This document shows positions 4,371 to 63,825 of a stretch of 64,000 nt of DNA, piece after piece. Origin of the DNA: Eledone cirrhosa (lineage: Eukaryota); the NCBI GenBank assembly GCA_964016885.1, contig OZ024742.1:40362001-40426000 (forward strand), given 5' to 3'. The notes below the pieces were generated by a model. It saw only the letters and a list, made by a program, of their open reading frames with translations, did no database searches and had not been told where the DNA came from. The translations under genes were made by a program, and so were the position numbers. Positions within the stretch are counted from its first letter, which is position 1. Every line of letters begins with the position of its first letter.

Positions 4371-4377
<7 letters not shown>

Positions 4378-4658
4378 CGTAGTTAAGAAAGCCACAACAA
4401 TGCAGAGGAAAATCTCGAGGTAGGAAGTGAAAGATAATAGGAAAAACAGGTGAAAGTGAAAATTGAGAGAGACAAAGATGAAAACAAAACAAAGGTAGAA
4501 GGGTTACCGTCTCCACTACGGTAACCCTTCTACCTCTGTTTTGTTTTCATCTTTGTCTCTCTCAATTTTCACTTTCACCTGTTTTTCCTATCTATCTTTC
4601 ACTTCCTACCTCGAGATTTTCCTCTGCATTGTTGTGGCTTTCTTAACTACGTATTTTA
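4371..4658. repeat. Long inverted repeat, ~140-bp arms, 7-nt loop
   Basis: taaaatacgtagttaag...gggttaccgt-ctccact-acggtaaccc...cttaactacgtatttta, with few mismatches. Confidence 0.95.
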
Positions 4659-4877: not shown

Positions 4878-5494
4878 ATCTAGTCTTTAATGCATCGAAA
4901 TACCAACGATAATCAGCAGACTACTGAAGAGGACATTTTAACCCTTGTCTATTTTTATTCATATGTTCATGTTCGCAACAACGCAGCACGCCATTCTTCA
5001 TTCACATAATGTTTCCCTTCGCTGTGGTTCGTATTTTTTCTGTCACTTTACTGCTCTCACACTTTCTCTCTCCTTCACCTCTTGCCTTCCTCAACTCCCG
5101 CTGCTGGTCACTCACTCTCGGCTGTCCCTTCCTCCCACTTTCACTCACTCCCTCTCTGCTTCTCCCCCCTCTCACTTCCTCCCGTCTGACCTGCTTGAAT
5201 TTCTTTCCTCTCTCAATCTTCTCGCAGCTCGGACGTGTCTATTTCTCCTCGTCAATTTGATATGTCGGGCTTAAGCCCACAGGATTCATTGACTTGTCTC
5301 TATTTTCCTCTCTTTACATTGCATACCACCATGTGTTTGTTTCCTTCCCTCTGTTTTCCCACTGTCCCGATAACTTAATTGAGTTATCGCTCGCACTGAT
5401 TTTAGGTATCTAGTCTTTAATGCGTTGAAATACCAACGATAATCAGCAGACTACTGAAGAGGACATTTTAACCCTTGTCTATTTTTATTCATAT
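4878..5494 (+). mobile_element. 530-bp element with 87-bp terminal direct repeat and rearranged hammerhead motifs
   Basis: 4878-4964 is repeated at 5408-5494. Motif order is GGTA-TC-tagtct..GAAA-tacc..agacta-CTGAAGA. A diverged homologue lies at 24800-25030. Confidence 0.7.
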
Positions 5495-13232: not shown

Positions 13233-13429
13233 TATATACACAGTATAGTAAATAATAGAGTGAAGGCCATATGAAGTAGGGCATACATTTTATTCAGCTA
13301 TTATACATATTTCTGGGGTTGATGATTAGTTGATGTGATCACCATGTAACTATTGGCCTGAGTTCATCAGATAGCATTAAGAGATAAAGAAAAGTAACTT
13401 CTAAAGTTTATCGATACAATGGTAAACAT

Positions 13430-15153
13430 TTCGGGTTTGTGTCAGGCAAAAGTACCACAGACGCTCTTTTCATTGTACGACAACTACAGGAGAAGTACCT
13501 AGCTAAAAGTAAACCCCTATACTTAGCCTTTGTCGACTTGGAGAAAGCCTTCGACAGAGTCCCCCGTTCCATTATCTGGTGGGCTCTTAGAAAACTAGGT
13601 GTTGACGAATGGCTTGTGAGAGCTATACAAGCCATGTATAAAGAAACAGTGAGCAAGGTTAGAATTAACAACGAATATAGTGAAGAGTTTAGCGTAAAAG
13701 TTGGTGTCCATCAGGGCTCTGTTCTTAGCCCCCTACTATTCATTATTGCTCTTCAGGCTATAACAGAGGAGTTCAAGACCGGCTGCCCATGGGAACTCCT
13801 ATACGCAGATGACCTAACGCTCATAGCTGAATCAATGGCCGAGCTAGAGAGGAAATTCCAAACATCGAAGCACGGCCTAGAATCAAAAGGCCTTAAAATT
13901 AACATGGCTAAGACTAAAGTTCTAGTTTGTAGGAAAGAAAATAAGGCGCCGGTCCCTTCTGGGAAATGGCCATGCTCAGTGTGTAGGAAAGGCGTAGGTA
14001 GAAACTCCATTTTATGTCCCAAATGCAAAGTATGGGTGCATAAAAGATGTAGTGGGATCACAGGTAAGCTAACTAAGAACACAGATTTTACATGTGGCCG
14101 GTGCTCTGGTGCAATAAGTAGCAGCAAGTGCCCACAAAATACTAGCTCTTTCAACTGCGCAGAGGGTTCTATAGAAATAGTGGACAGCTTCCGTTACCTG
14201 GGTGACAAAATCAGCAGTGGGGGAGGGTGCTCTGAAAGTACAGTAGCTAGAGTCAGAACTGGATGGAAAAAGTTCAGAGAGCTTATACCACTATTAGCCG
14301 CTAAAGGGTTCTCCCTAAAAATGAAAGGCAGGTTGTATGATGCCTGCATACGAACAGCAATGTTGCATGGCAGTGAGACCTGGGCATTGTGTGCAGAGGA
14401 TATACGCAGACTAGAGAGGAATGAAGCTTGCATGCTCCGCTGGATGTGTAATAGTAATATACGTGAACGGCAAAGCATAAACGAACTAAGGAAAAAATTA
14501 GAAATAAGAGGGATCAGATGTTGTTTACTCAGAGAAGGCTACGTTGGTATGGTCACGTGATGCGCATGAAAGACGACAGCTGTATAACAAAGTGCAGGGC
14601 AATAAAGATAGACGGTAGCCACGGAGTAGGCAGACCCAGAAAAACCTGGGACGAGCTGATAAATTCCGACCTCACACATTTACACCTCTCCAAGACAATG
14701 TCACTGGACCGAGAGCTTTGGCGGTACTCAGTAATAGAGAAGACCCGCGTTACCTAAATACAAAGTAAAACCTACTACAGTCAGTAGGCATCTCTAACAA
14801 AATACACCCCCGTCCCACCACCCCCACCCCATCCACACCGCCCCTTTCAATGTAAAGTTATGTTGGTGCCACAAAATCCAGGCCGAAACAAATGAGATCG
14901 TGTAGGTGTCACGACAAAAAAAAAAACACACAGTCCACGCTGTAATGTGGCTGTGTAGGCAACATGGTAAAAACCTCCCAGTCCCACACTGTAAATGTGG
15001 TTGGTGTTAGGAAGGGCATCCAACTGTAGAAAACCCGCCAGACAGTCCTATGCGAGCAAGACAATCACTCTTGCCTCAAGTGGGAAAACTCCCGTCCAAA
15101 CCCATGCAAGCGTGGAACACGGACGTTAAACGATGATGATGATGATGATGATG
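13430..15153 (+). mobile_element. 5'-truncated RTE-clade LINE, subfamily A
   Basis: RT motifs FVDLEKAFD, QGSVLSP, YADD; PHD-like insert; RLRWYGHV..GRPRKTW; one frameshift near 14530; (GAT)n tail. Highly similar to 53396-55095. Confidence 0.95.
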
Positions 15154-23279: not shown

Positions 23280-24345
23280 ATCACTACTGTTTCTTTTATA
23301 TTCACATTTCTTAACAGTCAGCTAGTAAGCTGATAGTGTCCTACCTCTATATAAGTATGTATACCGTTGTTTCTTTTATATCATAGTTACAAACTAGCGG
23401 CCAGGTATTTGATCACATTAATCTCCAGTTGACTTAAACAGTAGTTGAGGAACTAAATGGTATGTTCTTCTGGTTTTATAATTTCACAAAGTTTTACCAA
23501 TAGAGAGAGAGTCGGTTTCTAACATAGACACAAGACTCTCTCATTGGAATTTACACAACATCAACTAGGTAGATATGTATGTATGTCTGCATGCATGCAT
23601 GTGTAGATATGGATGTTATTGTATGTGTGGATGTGTATGTTTTGAGTTGTATGTGTGCATGTGTATATGCTTTGTATCTGTACATGTGTATATGCAGTTA
23701 TTAGACGCAACATTTTTGGAATGTTTTACATATTTTTACTGTTCCATTAATGGATTGTACTTGTAATTTCCTAACTAGTTGTGTTCTTTCTGTTCCTGTG
23801 AAGCCTAGCTTCTCAAGATTTGAATTGAGGCAGTTACTAACATATCCCAGTGCCCCAATAATCACAGGCATAAATCTGAAGGTGTAATCAGGGTGGAGTA
23901 TCTGCAGATTTCTCATCAATTCTGCATAAATATTCTCCTTTTCGCTAATCTTTGATATTATATTGGCATCTGCTGGGCAGCTAATTTCCACTACTGTGCA
24001 TGTTTTCTTCTCCCTGTCCCATATCATAATATCTGGTCTGTTATGCCTGCATTTTATTAGGGTTTTTACTGGAACATTCCACCAGTACTCTTTCATATTA
24101 TGTATATGTATGTCTTCCACATTGCTGTAGCTTTTAATGTGTTTATTATTGGGGCTATCTTTTCTACGGATTGCATTGTACAGTGTTTTGGCCACTACAT
24201 CATGCCTCATAGGTAGATAGTACCGCGATGACATCTTTGGACAGCTGCTTATGACATGGATGACATCTTCAATGTTAATTCTGCAAAGTCTGCATTTGTT
24301 ATCACATATAGGTGTTTTGCCTGCATCCCTATCCCTTTTGTGAAA
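23280..24345 (-). mobile_element. 5'-truncated non-LTR retrotransposon with restriction-like endonuclease (R4/Dong-like)
   Basis: Minus strand: CRLC...E...HVISSC zinc knuckle, RHD, NRPDI..D...VEISCP and PVIIGALG; stop at 23701. The 3'-UTR boundary is approximate. Confidence 0.85.
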
Positions 24346-24420
24346 TATGTATGTATGTGTGTATGTATGTATGTATGATGAATACTACTGTGATATATAT
24401 GTGTGCATGTGTGTGATTTT

Positions 24421-24799: not shown

Positions 24800-25030
24800 G
24801 AATTATTGACTCGATATTCTCATTTTTTCCTCTCTTTACGTTGCCTCACCATTCATGTTTGTTTACCTGTCTCTCTTTCTCCACCCAACTCTTTTTATCC
24901 CAATAACTTATTTTAGTTATTGCATCACCCTAGCCTGAGGTATAGGATCTGTAATGCGAAGAAATACTTATGATGGCTAGTAGACCACTGATGACGGATA
25001 GTCCTGGCTTCTATTTCTAATTCTTCATTT
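24800..25030 (+). mobile_element. Diverged second member of the rearranged-hammerhead family
   Basis: Aligns by eye to 5285-5490, with identical spacing of TA / GAAA / CTGATGA. Flanked by (TA)n. Confidence 0.65.
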
Positions 25031-31850: not shown

Positions 31851-34473
31851 CATCATCATCATCATCATCACCGTTTTACGTCCGTTCTTCCACGCTAGCA
31901 TGGGTTAGACGGGTTGTCCTGTTGTGGGCAGTGTCTGGTCGGCTGACCATGCCTTGCTCATACAGGAACTGATCTGGCTTGATTTCTACAGCTGGATGCC
32001 CTTCCTAACACCAACCTCATTTACAGTGAGTGCTGGGTGCTTTTTCGTGGCGCCTACATGTCCACTTTACAGTGTGGGCTGGGTGCTTTTTTGCCGTGGC
32101 ACCTCCACGACCACCTTGCGGTGGGGGGGGGGGGCATATTGTTTATATGCTTCAGCATGTACCCATGGGAGGTCGGGTACCCTGTATTACTGCGTGACGC
32201 CAGAAGTCACGGTCGTGTGTCATTGACTTTGAGAGGTGTAGTTGGGTAAGGTCGGCTTTTATCACCTCATCCCAAGTCATCTTGGGTCTCCCCACTCCGC
32301 GGTTTCCATCAACTTCTAGTGCTCTGCACCTTTTTATGCAGCTGTCATCCTTCATACGCATCACATGTCCATACCAGCGTAACCGCCTCTCCTGCACGCA
32401 GCATTTGATTCCTCTTATGCTCAGTCTCTCTCTCAATTCATTTATGCTTTGTCGTTCACGTATATTACTGTTACACATCCATCGGAGCATGCAGGCTTCG
32501 TTTCTCTCTAATCTACGTAAGTCTTCCACCTTCAGCGCCCAGGTCTCACTACCATGCAACATCGCTGTTCGGATACACGCATCATACAGTCTGCCTTTCA
32601 TTCTGAGGGAGAAGCCTTTTGCAGCTAGCAGTGGTAGTAGTTCCCTAAACTTCTTCCATCCCGTTCTTACCCTAGTTATTGTACTTTCTGAGCACCCACC
32701 TCCGTTGCTAATTCGGTCACCTAGGTAGCAGAAGCTGTCTACTGTTTCTACAGGGCCCTCCCAGAGATTGGTGGTACTTGTTTCCTGTGGCTGTTTGCTT
32801 GCTGTTTCAGCACAGCTGCTGCATGTGAATCCTACATTCTTAATTAAGCTTCCTGAGATCCCGCTACATCTCTTGTGTACCCATTGTTTGCATTTGGGGC
32901 AAAGAATGGAGTTCCTACCTACACCTTTCCTACATACTGAGCAAGGCCATTTCCCTGAGGGGATCTGGGTTCTGTTTTCTCGTCTACTTATAAGGACCTT
33001 AGTCTTTGTCATGTTGACTTTGAGGCCCTTTCTCTCTAGTCCCTGCTTCCAGGTTTGGAATTTATCCTCTAGTTCTACCATAGATTCAGCTATGAGTGCG
33101 AGGTCATTAGCATACAGGAGTTCCCATGGGCATCCGGTCTTAAACTCCTCCGTTATTGCCTGCAGGACTATGATGAACAGGAGAGGGCTAAGAACAGAGC
33201 CCTGGTGGATCCCAACCTGTACGCTAAATTCCTCGCTATACTCATTGCCAATCCTAACTTTGCTGACTGCTCCCCTATACATGGCTTGTACCGCTTTCAC
33301 AAGCCATTCATCTACTCCTAGTTTTCTAAGAGCCCACCAGATTACTGCACGTGGAACTCTGTCAAAGGCTTTCTCAAGGTCGACAAATGCCAAGTAGAGT
33401 GGCTTACTTTTAGCTAGGTACTTTTCCTGTAATTGCCTCACAAGGAAGAGCGCATCAGTGGTGCCTTTCCCTGGTACAAACCCAAATTGCATCTCGTCTA
33501 TATTCACCCGGTCCCTAATCAGCTGTGCTATAACTCTTTCTGTTACTTTCATGACCTGGTCCATCAACTTTATACCTCTATAGTTTCCTCTATCTAGTGC
33601 ATCGCCTTTACCTTTGTAGCAGTTGACAATGATGCTACTGCACCAATCTTTTGGTATGGCCCCCTCTAGTATTACCTGGTTAACGATACGTGTGGTTATA
33701 GTGTGACCTACAGACCCAGATGCCTTCAGCATCTCGGCAGCTATACCCGATGGACCGGTTGCCTTCCCTATCTTCATATCTCTGATTGCCTTACTTACTA
33801 CGCTGCCGCTGACTTGTACTGCTGGTCCCTCTATAGGGTCTACCTGGGGTAGGGTCTCTTCTTCCCATGCATTCTCCTCATTTAGTAATCTATCATAATG
33901 ACTCTTCCATGCATATTTCTTCTCAGCACTTGTGAGGGCAAGCTCACCTTTATCATTCCGGATACACTTCTCTCCAATGACATCACAACTATCTCTGACA
34001 CACTGCCTCGCAATCTTGAATACCTCCTGTTTCTGGTCCTCACGTTGTAAAACATGCTTGAATTTTCTATCCTCTGCCTCCCTCCTAGCTAAGTATACTT
34101 GTCGCCTAGCTTCCCTCTTGGTCTCTATGTAATGTACCCTGCTCCCCCCGTTCTTCCATTCTTTCCATGCCTGTCTCTTGGCCTTGACTGCTTCATCTAC
34201 CTTATTGTTCCACCACCAAGTCACTCTCCTCCTGCTTGAGGTCTTACTCCAGCCACAAACCTCATCCGTCGCCTCTAGTAAGTTATTTTTTAGGAACTCC
34301 CAGTTCTCTTCTACGTTAAATGTCTCTATCTGTTCTTCTTTACTGTCGTAGGCGTTGAGTAAAATATCTTTAAATCTGTTACTGGTTGAGGGGACTTTCA
34401 GCTTCCAGATCTTTCTTCTCCAGGTTGGCCTCCGTTTCAGGGCTCGTCTAGTTCTGACCGTGAGGTCGCTGAC
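31851..34473 (-). mobile_element. 5'-truncated RTE-clade LINE, subfamily B
   Basis: Open frame 32152-34470 with RT motifs, but YAND replaces YADD. PHD-like insert, (GAT)n tail at 31851. Confidence 0.95.
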
Positions 34474-34840
34474 ATGATGATGCGAATTCCAAGTGTGGTC
34501 GTACCATAGCTGTATACAGTTTTAAATAGATGGCTGGAGAGCGGCTAACAAAGGTCTTGCTGAGTGATGCCAAGACACCCTCAGCCTTCTTGACAATCTT
34601 AGAGACATGCTTTGTCCAACGCAAATCGCTGCTGACAGTAATGCCCAGGTCACGTTCATAAGAGGACTTCTTGATATCAGTTGTGGAGGGAGTATGTGGA
34701 CGCTGGATTTTTCCTAAAAAAATGCATGGTGGTACACTTGTCCACAGCCAGCTTCAGTTGCCAGTCTGTGATCCATTACTGCATTGTGTCCAGGTCTGAT
34801 TGTAGGAAAGAGTTGTAGATTTCAGGATCAGTCCTTTTGA
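34474..34840 (-). mobile_element. CR1-like LINE, upstream half (split by RTE)
   Basis: LQSDLD...W..DWQLKL..DKC...ERDLGI.VSSDLRW..H...LYTAMVRPHLEFASS, which continues into VWN at 31850. Confidence 0.85.
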
Positions 34841-48740: not shown

Positions 48741-49064
48741 CGAATGCATTGAGTACCTTACTAATGTGGTTACCCACAATTGAACCCAGGAGTCAAATAT
48801 ATGTGTGTGTGTGTGTATTTGAAATGCATGTCTCAACACATATGACCATGATGAGAGTCAATCAAGTAATAATTGAGAAAATCAAGTAAAGTAACACAGA
48901 AAAAATTATTATGGTCATTTGCACAGGAACGCACACAATTCAAATTTTTCTAATGCTTCCTAAGCCAACCATTTTAGATATCTATCTATCTTGCCATATC
49001 TCTTTCTATATATATGTGTGTACAACATGTATATATATATATATATATATGTTTGTATGTATTA

Positions 49065-49162
49065 CAGCAGTACATATTCTAAAATTGGAATGATACAGAG
49101 AAGATTAGCATAGCTCCCTGCACAAGGATGACACAGAAAATTGTGACGCATTCCATATTTTT
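49065..49162 (+). pseudogene. U6: U6 snRNA retrocopy
   Basis: gcagtacatattctaaaattggaatgatACAGAGAagattAGCatagctccctgcacaaggatgacac...ttccatattttt follows U6 to its oligo-U end. The first ~11 nt are absent and no snRNA promoter is visible. Confidence 0.92.
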
Positions 49163-50884: not shown

Positions 50885-53800
50885 ATAATTGTCTTTCTAT
50901 AATTCTGTCTCACTGTTCTAAAAATCTTCTCCACGTTGTTATAAATAATCTTCCCGCTACCATTTTGGCCGAAAAGTTTTTCCAGGATTCATAGAAATGG
51001 CTTCTCTCTCTCTCGGCCCTCTAAAATCGCTTCACCTTCACTCTCTCTCTATCATATACGTCGCTCTCTCACTCCCTCTCACTCCCTACGCACTACCACC
51101 AAATATAAATATAAATAAGCCTGTTACGGGGGACAAAACTCAGAATTTGTCAACTTTTATTGATGGTCAGTCGGCTTCTAAGAAATGTAACGTACAAATA
51201 TCATTTTCTTCTTAACTCCCCACCCTTCGGTTCATTCATCCATATATCTAAAATCGCCCAGAATCACAATCTTATTCATAATTGTCTTTCTATAATTCTG
51301 TCTCACTCTCTCTCCAACAATATATGTCGCTCTCTCACTCCCTCTCACTCCCTACGCACCAAATATAAATAAGCCTGCTCCTCACAAACTACCCATACCC
51401 CTCTCTCCCGCCCCCACTCACCACCTTATTATTTGGACCAATCACAAGTCAACGGCCTATGCTATCACTTCTGGTTGCTTTTCGATATGATGGATGGACT
51501 AAGGAATTTCTGGAGAGTCTGAAGAATCTGGACACCCGAAGACAATGCCAAAGATAACGACAAATTCACCTCATGCTGCCGGACGAAAGGGCAAGGCCCC
51601 CTCCTCTTTGTTGCGGCCGCGGATGGCCAACATAACCCCAACCCCATCCACCTCACCCCTCCCTGCGCCCCACCCACCAAACGCAATCCAAAACTTCAGA
51701 GTTGGTACCATGAATGTAGGCACCTTAAAAGGCTGCTCTAACGAGGTTGTAGAAATGCTTGAACGTAAGGAGGTTGATGTTTGCTGTATCCAAGAGACCA
51801 GGTGGAGGGGTGGGTCTGCTAGATTAATTGTGGGTAAAAAACGATGCTATAAGCTTTTCTAGGTGGGAAATGACAATGGGCTGGGTGGGGAAGGAATCAT
51901 GTTAGCAGAAAAATGGGTGGATAAGATAATAGACGTAAATAGAGTGAATGACAGAATAATTAAAATAAGACTTGCTCTAAATAGAACTACTGTGACGGTA
52001 ATATCTGCGTACGCGCCCCAATCCGGACTGCCTGGCGCTATAAAAGACAGTTTCTATGAGACACTGATGGTCACTACCTCCCAAATAACCGACAGTGACT
52101 ATATAATTATTGCTGGCGACCTAAATGGTCACGTTGGACAACATTGTGATGGCTATGGTGGAATCCACGGAGGCTATGGGTTTGGTACTAGAAATGAGGA
52201 AGGCTCCAGAATCCTGGAATTCTGTGATGCAAATAACCTAACTATCTGTAACACTAACTTCAAAAAATGAGACAATCACTTGATCACCTACAGATCAGGG
52301 GAACATACCAGCCAGGTAGATTATATCCTTAGCAGAAGACGTGACAGAGTGTCTGTTGTAAACACTAAATCCCTCCCCCATGAGGAATGCACCTCCCAAC
52401 ATAGACTCATAATTAGCGACCTCATAGTCAGGACGAGACGTACTCGACAGCAGAAGAGGACTATCCTCAGGAGAAAAATATGGAAGCTAAAGGACCCCAC
52501 AACCAGAAATAAATTTAAAAGCATATTACTTGATGCTTTTGACAGTAAGGAAGAGCATTTAGAGTCGTACAATATAGAGGAGCAGTGGGAATTCCTGAAA
52601 GCAAACCTGCTGATGGCGGCAGACGAAGTCTGTGGCTGGAGTAGGCCTATAGGCAGGAGGAGAGTAACATGGTGGTGGAACAGTAAGGTGGAGGAGTCAA
52701 TTAAGGCCAAAACGCAGGCTTGGAAAGTATGGCAGGATGGGGGAAGTAGAGAAGACTATCAAGTGGCCAGGAGGGAAGCTAGGAGACAAGTGTACTTCGC
52801 AAGAAGGGAAGCAGAGGAAAGAAAGTTCAAGCATGTTCTACAACACGAGGACCAAAAACGTGAGGTGTTCAGGATTGCTAGGCAATGTGTCAAGGAAAAT
52901 CATGATATTGTCGGGGAGAAGTGTGTACTTAATGATGATGGAGTACTCGCCATCACTGATGCTGATAAGAAGGTAGCTTGGAAGTGTCACTACGAAAGGC
53001 TACTAAATGAGGAGAATAAATGGGAGAAAGACAGTCTCCCCCACATCGACCCAATAGAGGGACCAGCAGTGTTAGTCGAAGGTAGTATAATAAGTAAGGC
53101 AATCAAAGATACGAAGACGGGTAAGGCGGCTGAGCCTTCGGAAATAGTTGCTGAGATGCTGAAAGCCTCTGGAACGGTGGGACACACCATGGTCACCCGG
53201 ATGGTAAACCAAGTCATACAGAATGGGGTTGTTCTGAAGGACTTACGTAGCAGCATCATCATTAACTGTTACAGGGGTAAAGGAGATGCCCTAGATAGGA
53301 GTAACTATAGAGGCATTAATCGACCAGGTCATGAAGGTCACGGAAAAAGTAATAGCGCAACTAATCAGAGAGAGAATTGATCTAGATGAAATGCAGTTCG
53401 GGTTTGTGTCAAGCAAAAGTACCACCGACGCTCTTTTCATTGTACGACAACTACAGGAGAAGTACCTAGCAAAAAGTAAACCCCTATACTTAGCTTTTGT
53501 CGACTTGGAGAAAGCCTTCGACAGAGTCCCCCGTTCCATTATCTGGTGGGCTCTTAGAAAACTAGGTGTTGATGAATGGCTTGTGAGAGCTATACAAGCC
53601 ATGTATAAAGAAACAGTCAGTAAGGTTAGAATTAACAACGAATATAGTGAAGAGTTTAGCGTAAAAGTTGGTGTTCATCAGGGCTCCGTTCTTAGCCCCC
53701 TACTATTTATTATTGCCCTTCAGGCTATAACAGTTCAAGACCGGCTGCCCATGGGAACTTCTATACGCAGATGATCTAACGCTCATAGCTGAATCAATGG

Positions 53801-55095
53801 CTGAACTAGAGAAGAAATTCCAAATATGGAAGCACAGCCTAGAATCAAAAGGCCTTAAAATTAACCTGGCTAAGACTAAAGTTCTAGTTTGTAGGAAGGA
53901 AAATAGGGCGCCGGTCCCATCCGGGAAATGGCCATGCTCAGTGTGTAGGAAAGGTGTAGGTAGAAACTCCATTTTATGTCCCAAATGCAAAGTATGGGTG
54001 CATAAAAGATGTAGTGGGATCACAGGTAAGCTAACTAAGAACATAGATTTTACATGTGGCCGGTGCTCTGGTGCAATAAGTAGCAGCAAGTGCCCACAAA
54101 ATACTAGCTCTTTCAATTGCACAGAGGGTTCTATAGAAATAGTGGACAGCTTCCGTTACCTGGGTGACAAAATCAGCAGTGGGGGAGGGTGCTCTGAAAG
54201 TACAGTAGCTAGAGTCAGAACTGGATGGAAAAAGTTCAGAGAGCTTATACCTCTATTAGCCGCTAAAGGGTTCTCCCTAAAAATGAAAGGCAGGCTGTAT
54301 GATGCCTGCATACGAACAGCAATGTTGCATGGCAGTGAGACCTGGGCATTGTGTGCAGAGGATATACGCAGACTAGAGAGGAACGAATCTTGCATGCTCC
54401 GCTGGATGTGTAATAGTAATATACGTGAACGGCAAAGCATAAACGAACTAAGGAAAAAATTAGAAATAAGAGGGATCAGATGTTGTTTACTCGAGAGAAG
54501 GCTACGTTGGTATGGTCACGTGATGCGCATGAAAGACGACAGCTGTATAAAAAAATGCAGGGCAATAAAAATAGACGGTAGCCATGGAGTAGGCAGACCC
54601 AGAAAAACCTGGGACGACTTGATAAATTCCGACCTCACACACTTACACCTCTCCAAGACAATGTAACTGGACCGAGATCTTTGGCAGTATTCAGTAATAG
54701 AGAAGACCCGCCTTACCTAAATACAAAGTAAAACCTACTACAGTCAGTAGGCACCTCTAACAAAATACCCCCCCCCCATCCACACCGCCCCTTTCAATGT
54801 AAAGTTATGTTGGTACCACAACATCCAGTCCGAAACAAATGAGGTCGTGTAGGTGTCACGACAAAAAAAAACACACAGTCCACGCTGTAATGTGGCCGTG
54901 TAGGTAACACGGTAAAAACCATCCAGTCCACACTGTAAACGTGGTTGTTGTTAGGAAGGGCATCCAGCCGTAGAAAACCCGCCAGACAGTCCTATGCGAG
55001 CAAGACAACCACTCTTGCCTCAAGTGGGAAAACCCCCGTCCAAACCCATGCAAGCGTGGAATACGGACGTTAAACGATGATGATGATGATGATGA
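50885..55095 (+). mobile_element. Near-full-length RTE-clade LINE, subfamily A (disabled)
   Basis: 5' leader with internal duplications. A single ORF 51545-54720 encodes an APE endonuclease (GTMNV.TL, CIQETRW, AYAPQ, GDLNGHVG, VDYIL, SQH) and RT (YADD), with stops at 51860, 52268 and 54664 and frameshifts near 53320 and 53731. (GAT)n tail. Confidence 0.95.
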
Positions 55096-62035: not shown

Positions 62036-63168
62036 ATCATCATCATCATCATCACCGTTTTACGTCCATTCTTCCACGCTAGCATGGGTTAGATGGGTTG
62101 TCCTGTTGTGGGCAGTGTCTGGTCGGCTGACCATGCCTTGCTCATACAGGAACTGATTTGGCTTGATTTCTACAGCTGGATGCCCTTCCTAACACCAACC
62201 TCATTTACAGTGAGTGCTGGGTGCTTTTTCGTGGCGCCTACACGTCCACTTTACAGTGTGGGCTGGGTGCTTTTTTGCCGTGGCACCTCCACGACCACCT
62301 TGCGGTGGGGGGTGGGGGGGGGGCATATTGTCTATATGCTTCAGCTTGTACCCATGGGAGGTCGGGTACTCTGTATTACTGCGTGACGCCAGAAGTCACG
62401 GTCGTGTGTCATTGCCTTCGAGAGGTGTAATTGGGTAAGGTCGGCTTTTATCACATCATCCCAGGTCATCTTGGGTCTCCCCACTCCGCGGTTTCCATCA
62501 ACTTCTAGTGCTCTGCACCTTTTTATGCAGCTGTCATCCTTCATACGCATCACATGTCCATACCAGCGCAACCGCCTCTCCTGCACACAGCATTTGATTC
62601 CTCTTATGCTCAGTCTCTCTCTCAATTCATTTATGCTTTGTCGTTCACGTATATTACTGTTACACATCCATCAGAGCATGCAGGCTTCGTTTCTCTCTAA
62701 TCTACGTAAGTCTTCCACCTTCAGCGCCCAGGTCTCACTACCATGCAACATTGCTGTTCGGATACATGCATCATACAGTCTGCCTTTCATTCTGAGGGAG
62801 AAGCCTTTTGCAGCTAGCAGTGGTAGTAGTTCCCTAAACTTCTTCCATCCCGTTCTTACCCTAGTTATTGTACTTTCTGAACACCCACCTCCGCTGCTAA
62901 TTCGGTCACCTAGGTAGCAGAAGCTGTCTACTGTTTCTACAGAGCCCTCCCAGAGATTGGTGGTACTTGTTTCCTGTGGCTGTTTGCTGCTTGCTGTCTC
63001 AGCACAGCTGCTGCATGTGAAGCCTACATTCTTAATTAAGCTTCCTGAGATCCCGCTACATCTCTTGTGTACCCATTGTTTGCATTTGGGGCAGAGAATG
63101 GAGTTCCTACCTACACCTTTCCTACATACTGAGCAAGGCCATTTCCCTGAGGGGATCTGGATTCTGTT
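62036..63168 (-). mobile_element. 5'-truncated RTE LINE, subfamily B
   Basis: Near identical to 31851-32975, with one internal stop. Confidence 0.95.
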
Positions 63169-63184
63169 CATCAGTGATATAAAC

Positions 63185-63825
63185 CTTTTCCAATCACATG
63201 AAAGACCCATAGAAGTGGTTGATGGTTTCTGCAATTTATGTGTTCTAATTAGCAGTGAAGGAGGGTTCTTTGAAAGCATCGTAGCTAGAATAAGGACAAG
63301 AGGGAAGAAGTTTAGAGAGCCACTTCTTCTGTTGACAACATAAGGTTTTTCCCTATGAAGCAAAGGACAGCTGCATGATGTCTATGTGTGAAGTGCAATG
63401 CTGCATGGTAGTGAAACATGGGCAGTGACTGCAAAGGATATGTGTAGTCTGGAAAGAAATGAAGCAAGCATGCTTCCATAGATGTGTAATGTTAATGAGA
63501 AAGAACAACAGAGCTTGGATGAACTAGGGAAAAACTGGGTTTAAGAGGAATCAGAAGTAGTATGTAAGAGAAAAGACATGTGATGTGCATGGATGATGAT
63601 TGCTGGGTGAAATGCCAGGAAATCCCAGTAAAAGGAAACCCCAGTAGAGGAAAACCAAGGAAGACCTGGGCAGAGGTGGTGAGAGCTGATCGCAAATCAC
63701 TGAAACTCACAGAGGTGATGACAAAGAAATGCGACAACTGGAGAGACACTGTGCTGAAAAAGACCTGTCCAACCCATACAAGCATGGAAAAGTGAGCATA
63801 AAAACAATGACAATGATGATAACGA
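63185..63825 (+). mobile_element. Older degenerate RTE copy, head-to-head with the 62036 copy
   Basis: IEVVDGFC.L...ARIRT..KKFRE, AMLHGSETWA, RGKPRKTW; tail cccatacaagcatggaa..gatgat. Confidence 0.8.

Follow-up and report, generated by a model that had tools for sequence, protein, structure and literature searches.

A Conserved, Probably Self-cleaving Hammerhead Fold of SGC Order in a Non-coding Penelope-like Repeat of Eledone cirrhosa

The insertion at positions 4878..5494 of the window—that is, of the whole stretch of 64,000 nucleotides of Eledone cirrhosa DNA analyzed here—carries a module that, judged from sequence comparison, is a conserved hammerhead fold of S-G-C block order in a non-autonomous Penelope-like family. 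With considerable confidence, the locus is interpreted as a non-coding Penelope-like repeat of 530 nt with a covarying SGC fold, likely self-cleaving after C5410, in which the module was likely inherited from a Naiad element. The initial annotation had proposed a non-circular hammerhead in a retrozyme-like, Penelope-related family, and this proposal is backed by covariation, core conservation, and element anatomy.

The Insertion and Its Block Order

The insertion, assigned to family A, lies in (TA)n-rich DNA and consists of a non-coding monomer of 530 nt together with a direct repeat of 87 nt; this and all of its features described below are on the plus strand. The upstream partial repeat (4878..4964) matches 5408–5494 with 97.7% identity and a period of 530, and contains the last 3 nt of the S block, the stem I 5′ strand, GAAA at 4897, and CUGAAGA at 4924–4930, with a cut predicted after 4880 and with strands a, b, c, d, and III absent. 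The monomer, counted from predicted cut to predicted cut, spans 4881..5410 (530 nt, 69% pyrimidine), and same-strand tandem periods of 500–575 nt were found in most related loci. The longest ATG frame in the doubled family A monomer is 103 aa, and the monomer is thus considered non-coding. Three sequencing runs from one study (type not stated) cover 4878 to ~5490 and are uninformative on RNA ends.

The hammerhead core blocks at 5363–5465 were found to be ordered UH, GAAA, CUGANGA, namely S-G-C. The S block (5405..5410) comprises the stem III strand GGUAU (16.5–16.1) and C17, the cut being predicted between 5410 and 5411, and is followed by the stem I 5′ strand TAGTCT (5411..5416), the partner of which is AGACTA (5448–5453). 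Positions 5417..5426 hold the conserved UUAA linker, the helix c 3′ strand, and nucleotide 11.1, which is U in the window copy and C in the family majority. The G block (5427..5434) consists of GAAA and the stem III partner strand, GAAATACC, and the segment 5435..5447 contains a 3-nt bulge and GA of a predicted kink-turn, the helix d 3′ strand, and a 1-nt link. In the C block (5448..5461), the stem I 3′ strand is followed by CUGAAGA (5454–5460) and G10.1, which pairs with 11.1; the helix a 3′ strand and a terminal segment (5462..5494) then extend to +84 relative to the cut, where the more frequent of two 3′ ends lies. The letters and order of the blocks given initially, with GGTAT-C at 5405–5410 and CTGAAGA at its present place, agree with this assignment.

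Upstream of the S block lie the 5′ strand of helix a (TGTCC, 5363..5367), pairing with GGACA/GACA at 5461–5465 and showing complementary letter changes elsewhere by eye; hairpin b, of 8 bp (5368..5389); the 5′ strand of helix c (TCGCA, 5391..5395), with four of five pairs to 5421–5425 in the window copy; the 5′ strand of helix d (CTGATT, 5396..5401), the partner of which is AATCAG at 5441–5446; and the non-bulged strand of the predicted kink-turn (5402..5404), which is UGA in eight of 10 families and UUA in the window copy.

A flexible SGC descriptor, specifying the order S-G-C and stems I and III of at least 5 bp each, matched the window solely at 5410 and, with both strands searched, matched none of 300 dinucleotide shuffles, while an Rfam search at the locus returned no hammerhead and no other ribozyme. 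The order corresponds to none of the circular types I, II, and III (CGS, GSC, and SCG), but to type SGC, with the S-G-C order and crossing stems; the HRIMA-1 form, which requires a multi-pair stem II, CGAAA with CUGAUGA(U)G, and a 3′ interaction stem, differs from the module. Novelty of the permutation, which the initial annotation had left to a literature check, does not hold, the order being that of the published type SGC. A canonical order formed across the tandem junction was also considered and rejected, the repeats yielding just GCS or CSG, both non-circular.

A second, 5′-truncated copy with the same module occurs at 24825..25030 (+), with a cut predicted after 24944, GAAA at 24961, and CUGAUGA at 24988–24994; over 24825–24994 it is 68% identical to the window module with unchanged spacing. 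The initial annotation had taken 24930–24994 for a diverged copy of the first element: the shared spacing stands, but the copy is not a decayed version of the first, since its family, B, is a separate one with a monomer of 572 nt. The two broken stem I pairs noted for it are private to this copy, with stem I of the family B majority being fully paired.

Several other features of the window were observed. A near-perfect inverted repeat with ~135 bp per arm, flanked by (TA)n, occupies 4375–4657 and is possibly a head-to-head truncated insertion of Penelope-like element (PLE) type. A full-length U6 snRNA-like copy, probably a retrocopy, adjoins (TA)n at 49059–49162 (+) and scores 94.9 bits against a cut-off of 44 bits. 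RTE-like LINE copies, assigned to this clade by eye and with frames of up to 789 aa, occur at 13388–14560, 32152–34521, 51503–54666, and 62341–63381. A 227-aa frame at 23701–24384 (−) has a CCHC finger and a PD-(D/E)xK-like motif, resembling R2/R4-type endonucleases by eye, and gave no match in a Pfam search; a tandem repeat with a 42-bp unit and several open frames is located at 1672–2049.

Related Families, Covariation, and the Scaffold

Searches of the genome (3.0 Gb, 1796 contigs) gave 1351 first-look candidates for the window module, 2093 for the 24.9-kb copy, and 968 for family D, totals that should not be read as copy numbers and that may partly coincide; counting exact 32-base matches gave 62 in family A and 184 in A2, its sister. 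Family B, a young family ~70% identical to family A, is the largest sampled family, and the 40 best matches of the 24.9-kb copy are 94–100% identical to that copy. Patterns for the S and G sides uncovered more families, with 70 matches in one search and 168, vs 27 for a reversed control, in another; 30 loci were taken from each. The C block and the pairing partners had not been selected by these patterns, yet they fit in the recovered families. In one locus (G000:C3:317803693-317803858), the S-G side pattern was observed to match three times with a 71-bp period.

Selection for helix pairing and GAA left 141 distinct sequence windows, representing 10 element families with at least two members each, singletons, and a few non-element matches. 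At positions not used in this selection, U16.1 was found in 95%, A15.1 in 96%, H17 in 100%, and CYGANGA in 85% of them. Divergence from the majority was 1.8–3.9% in families G, B, and A and 6–9% in the other families, the values for B and A being biased low because their samples are best matches. Pairwise identity among families ranges from 45 to 89%. Subfamily C1 (loci L098, L113, and others) was observed to carry CCGAAGA in place of CUGANGA throughout, yet it has spread.

For analysis of covariation, 12 representatives, consisting of the 10 families and two singletons, were placed in a gapless alignment. The named structure leaves 95.3% of 276 cells paired, vs 74.3% in shuffles, and shows two-sided change in 19 of 23 pairs, vs 10.7, with none of 500 shuffles reaching any measure; the rows being related and partly chosen by helix pairing, and the shuffle control being blind to relatedness, these figures are not a probability. 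The stronger point is that up to four Watson-Crick types occur in a single column pair. Slid-partner controls were only 30–49% paired. Two-sided change was found in all six pairs of stem I and in four of five pairs of stem III, in which U16.1-A15.1 is invariant, and likewise in three of five pairs of helix c (93% of cells paired) and five of six of helix d (97%). The initial annotation had made its reading depend on conservation of the core above its surroundings, and pairwise identity among the 10 family majorities is indeed 98% in the core vs 59% in the stems, one family having CCGANGA.

A chance arrangement of short motifs, with pairing retained merely through common descent, can be set aside as very nearly refuted. 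The families are related, as their pairwise identities show, and their changes are accordingly non-independent; however, the empty shuffle searches, the variety of Watson-Crick types, and the failure of the slid controls all speak against chance, as does the recurrence of the scaffold, by eye and with unrelated letters, in the Naiad sequences of a coral, a cubozoan, and squid.

Stem II, called poor and ambiguous at first, resolves into a single covarying 10.1–11.1 pair once more families are compared: it is present in 10 of 12 rows as four types (C-G in five, U-G in three, and A-U and U-A in one each) and unpaired in two, with families B and J having A-C at this sole pair. Helix c is formed by the strand preceding 11.1 and a segment upstream, and helix a (4–6 bp with family-specific letters, by eye) by the strand following 10.1 and a segment lying still further upstream; hairpin b lies between the 5′ strands of these two helices, except in family D, which lacks it. 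Thus, both strands of the one-pair stem II would continue into helices a and c, formed with an upstream strand also bearing hairpin b, and a four-way junction would result. A local stem II hairpin following CUGANGA was rejected, being found in families A and B and not in most others, whereas helices a and c hold across families.

Kink-turns are characterized by a helix ending in C-G, a 3-nt bulge, and tandem G-A and A-G pairs. The loop between stem III and helix d, a predicted kink-turn on the basis of this consensus, is a 3 × 6 loop with invariant G, A, and A in all 10 families (G1b, A2b, and A1n), G2n in eight of 10, and, in most families, two C-G pairs followed by a 3-nt bulge; family A has U for a kink-turn G. 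Such a turn would bend the strand leaving stem III back and bring helix d to the distal ends of stem I and helix c, an arrangement that would let a single RNA close the pseudoknotted core. Minimum free energy (MFE) folding recovers helix a, hairpin b, and stem I and misses stem III and helix d, and the MFE of the circular monomer (−72.5) is no better than that of shuffles (−68.2 ± 5.0).

The same pairs could also form between copies, in a domain-swapped dimer or between neighboring repeats, with the loop of stem III docking into the a/b/c/d multiloop of another RNA. Within a single strand, stems III and d are crossed by stems I, II, and c, covariation is blind to pairing in cis or in trans, and dimeric cleavage has reportedly been seen for small PLE hammerheads. 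This arrangement is nonetheless improbable, since the conserved kink-turn-like loop lies exactly where a single strand must turn back sharply, which favors a monomer; moreover, the stems are non-palindromic in most families, and most genomic copies carry just one module. Published SGC ribozymes, in addition, bridge the same distance in single-copy constructs (PMC10085705).

Genomic Footprint of Cleavage and Ends of the Element

From the sequence record of many copies, it is likely that the module cleaves itself after the predicted site. Counting against activity are the A-C at the sole stem II pair of families B and J, the CCGANGA of C1, and the U that family A has for a kink-turn G. That the window copy itself starts 3 nt before the predicted cut proves nothing alone; 5′ ends were therefore compared among matches picked solely by the sequence downstream of the cut, namely the 62 of family A and the first 100 of the 184 of A2. 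Seven of these 162 loci start at +1 to +3, five exactly at +1, whereas the 23 starts found at −1 to −45 predict 1.5 (Poisson P ~0.001); positions beyond −45 were ignored as subfamily-divergence artifacts. The excess at +1 is confounded, since the sequence from +1 opens with TA, as the target does, the bin was chosen post hoc, and position −20 has three starts. Two loci contain repeated restarts—three tandem segments in L238 (segment length, 40 nt) and two in L279 (33 nt)—each opening exactly at the predicted cut (+1) and with internal junctions outside (TA)n. These restarts are consistent with run-off of the reverse transcriptase (RT) from a fixed 5′ end and subsequent re-priming, and such loci offer a genomic footprint of cleavage.

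The remaining matches qualify this picture: 147 of the 162 continue for at least 6 nt through the predicted cut, from which it follows that cut linear RNA is not the main template, the usual template being uncut or re-ligated. The initial proposal that self-cleavage creates the 5′ end of the monomer is therefore borne out in part, by the loci starting at +1 to +3, and does not describe the majority. The read-through would also be expected if the fold were selected but cut rarely, or cut with a retrotransposon protein, and served as an RNA handle or a platform for the start of reverse transcription, with uncut multimers as template. In the anole PLE, unprocessed RNA was the dominant substrate, the hammerhead was protein-assisted, and no reads ended at the site (PMC11167929); eight of nine Xenopus retrozyme dimers were uncleaved in vitro (10.64898/2026.07.22.740005); and successful families here bear A-C at 10.1–11.1 or U4C. 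Against this reading, which we regard as rather unlikely, every catalytic core position is conserved well above the stems, the repeated restarts in L238 and L279 require a 5′ end at +1, and a re-ligated circle accounts equally well for read-through.

Copies of the carrier have common 3′ ends, are 5′-truncated and inserted in (TA)n, and often adjoin a truncated copy in inverted, head-to-head orientation. The 3′ ends fall at +82/84 (18 segments) or at +115–128 (14 segments), 30–45 nt apart, and the remaining 14 tallied segments are mostly query-limit artifacts. In the anole PLE, reverse transcription was described as starting at two internal sites that define the tail (PMC11167929). The PLE hallmarks of 5′ truncation, partial tandem repeats, and adjacent inverted copies are all present in the family, and its two 3′ ends match the optional 30–40 bp tail of PLEs; the hallmark of non-LTR retrozymes, non-coding tandem monomers with a single hammerhead in each, was likewise found.

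In the proposed mechanism, a tandem or read-through transcript would be cut at successive sites into monomers, and helices III, d, c, and a (~20 bp) would hold the two ends of a monomer together, favoring circularization by re-ligation. Supplied in trans, a Penelope-type RT/endonuclease would then nick (TA)n DNA and start copying at +84 or at +115 to +128 past the cut, usually reading across the sealed or uncut junction and occasionally running off the cut 5′ end at +1.

Naiad Elements and Known Hammerhead Systems

Naiads were reported to lack canonical hammerheads, some core motifs that fit no descriptor being tagged "HHR_core" or "HHR_half_core," and those of cephalopods were called old remnants (Craig 2021, PMC8557442). 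The last ~300 nt of 52 of the 54 Naiad consensus sequences in File S5 of that study were inspected by eye. SGC order, with stems I and III and helix d all paired, was recognized in Naiads Obim, Ovul, Esco, Amil, Aacu, Anas, and 2_Movir, and probably in Bfor, in which stem I has just 2 bp; in the nematode Naiads 1, 2, and 3_Nbra, Hcon, Hpol, and Asuum, the order was C-S-G, and stems I, II, and III were all complete. Circular permutation of SGC yields CSG, of which just two sequences were known to Eckert 2023 (PMC10085705). Four arthropod Naiad 3′ ends showed partial blocks, and the remaining ends showed no blocks in the part inspected. In Naiad_Obim and Naiad_Ovul, the scaffold appears by eye, with different letters, at the 3′ end ~1 kb after the ORF, and Naiad_Obim has stem III and the kink-turn loop in common with family D of the E. 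cirrhosa genome.

Other Naiads in the same file were observed to have different 3′ motifs. Those of Movir-1, Scon, Mmer, Mgal, Bpla, and Mphi resemble, by eye, the 3′ half of a twister ribozyme, and the consensus sequences of oyster, ark clam, pearl oyster, and hemichordate share a different conserved, structured-looking motif close after the stop codon, which is possibly an HDV-like or other ribozyme.

Taken together, the module of the family A repeat is likely to be Naiad-derived. SGC/CSG wiring may further be ancestral or widespread in Naiads (ctenophores, cnidarians, cephalopods, and nematodes) and caged in cephalopods, where the one-pair stem II would be rebuilt by the four-way junction, the kink-turn would close the pseudoknot, and the cut ends would remain clamped, with re-ligated circles seeding thousands of young copies; for this wider proposal, we see the odds as evenly balanced. 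The age of cephalopod Naiads counts against a Naiad reading, families A, B, and G being only 2–4% from their majorities. A Naiad ORF (N-terminal GIY-YIG, CxC motif, and C-terminal RT) is absent from the monomer and was not found linked in the examined loci. In the genome, two exact-match Naiad RT motif patterns gave zero matches, and a 20-base Naiad motif gave four one-mismatch matches, two of them SGC modules without an ORF.

Recent spread could accordingly have been driven by a different machinery, the module descending from an old Naiad or another, unknown PLE and being moved by PLEs that carry their endonuclease C-terminally, are abundant, and likewise target (TA)n. A search for GIY-YIG gave 10,595 first-look candidates, and in the 46 loci examined, every long ORF with RT and endonuclease motifs (up to 938 aa) ends in the endonuclease; SGC units are, moreover, nested beside such PLEs. 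However, the hammerheads near PLE ORFs are of type I, the neighboring SGC units were inserted separately, comparison of the monomer and tail with 75 PLE loci revealed no similarity apart from such separate SGC-family insertions, and a diverged Naiad would escape the two exact-match patterns. Mobilization by these PLEs is judged a serious alternative, albeit on the unlikely side.

Candidate physical links to such drivers were rejected. PLE ORFs located 2–3 kb upstream of SGC units (L185 and L193) or beside one (L197) proved to be independent insertions nested in (TA)n. At L104:669-1640, a fragment of a Neptune-like endonuclease precedes a family C module; this same-strand arrangement was seen in that locus alone among 30 loci and was considered a chance or chimeric join; in it, the endonuclease fragment and a C/A-rich UTR are joined to the family C SGC end, a junction unseen in the 29 related loci. 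As a separate observation, six tandem copies with a ~490-nt period and a type I hammerhead were found at L196:6560-9060, forming a classical retrozyme-like array.

In the literature outside subscription journals, no description was found that places a non-circular hammerhead in the genome of an animal or in Naiads, nor any of the module's scaffold and its Naiad link; the scaffold of one-pair stem II, four-way junction, and kink-turn is in this sense undescribed. The Naiad ribozyme would have been missed because all descriptors assumed circular orders.

With Naiads (PMC8557442), the family shares (TA)n targets, 5′ truncation, partial tandems, an inverted truncated copy, and a 30–40 bp tail, and, by eye, the SGC scaffold is common to the 3′ ends of Octopus, Euprymna, Acropora, Morbakka, and probably Beroe Naiads; unlike Naiads, the family A element has no ORF. 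Metazoan non-LTR retrozymes, which have been proposed to be PLE-derived and PLE-moved (PMC7229834; 10.64898/2026.07.22.740005), share non-coding tandem monomers of a few hundred bases with one hammerhead per unit. Retrozymes, however, have type I hammerheads and a demonstrated circular RNA, whereas the family A element has an SGC hammerhead and occurs mostly as truncated single modules. The minimal type I hammerheads of canonical PLEs (Poseidon, Neptune, and Hydra), present in this genome, share the near-3′ position and short tail, but have the circular C-G-S order with a local stem II hairpin and lack the pseudoknotted scaffold. The standing question of whether PLE ribozymes cut, circularize, or just scaffold RNA is made directly testable by the present families.

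Type SGC (HRIMA-1 and variants) was found in metatranscriptomes and in no genome of a known organism, with natural SGC ribozymes cleaving in vitro at 0.007–0.19 min−1 (Eckert 2023, PMC10085705). The module shares with it the S-G-C order, the full core, and a short link between the S and G blocks that connects stems I and II (4 nt, vs ~3 in published SGC), and its G-to-C distance of 13 nt is within the published limit of 0–15. In published SGC ribozymes, by contrast, stem II has several pairs and a 3′ extension forms an extra stem, whereas the module has a one-pair stem II capped by the junction with the upstream strand, and its stem III continues through the predicted kink-turn; it thus escapes the published descriptor, which needs CGAAA and CUGAUGAG or CUGAUGAUG plus 2–6 further stem II pairs. 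If the present interpretation is true, SGC and CSG ribozymes are placed in animal genomes at high copy number, many natural variants are supplied for structure work, and the environmental-RNA permutations of 2023, with hosts unidentified, are linked to Naiads, which were described in 2021 as successful retrotransposons devoid of the hammerhead of other Penelope-like elements.
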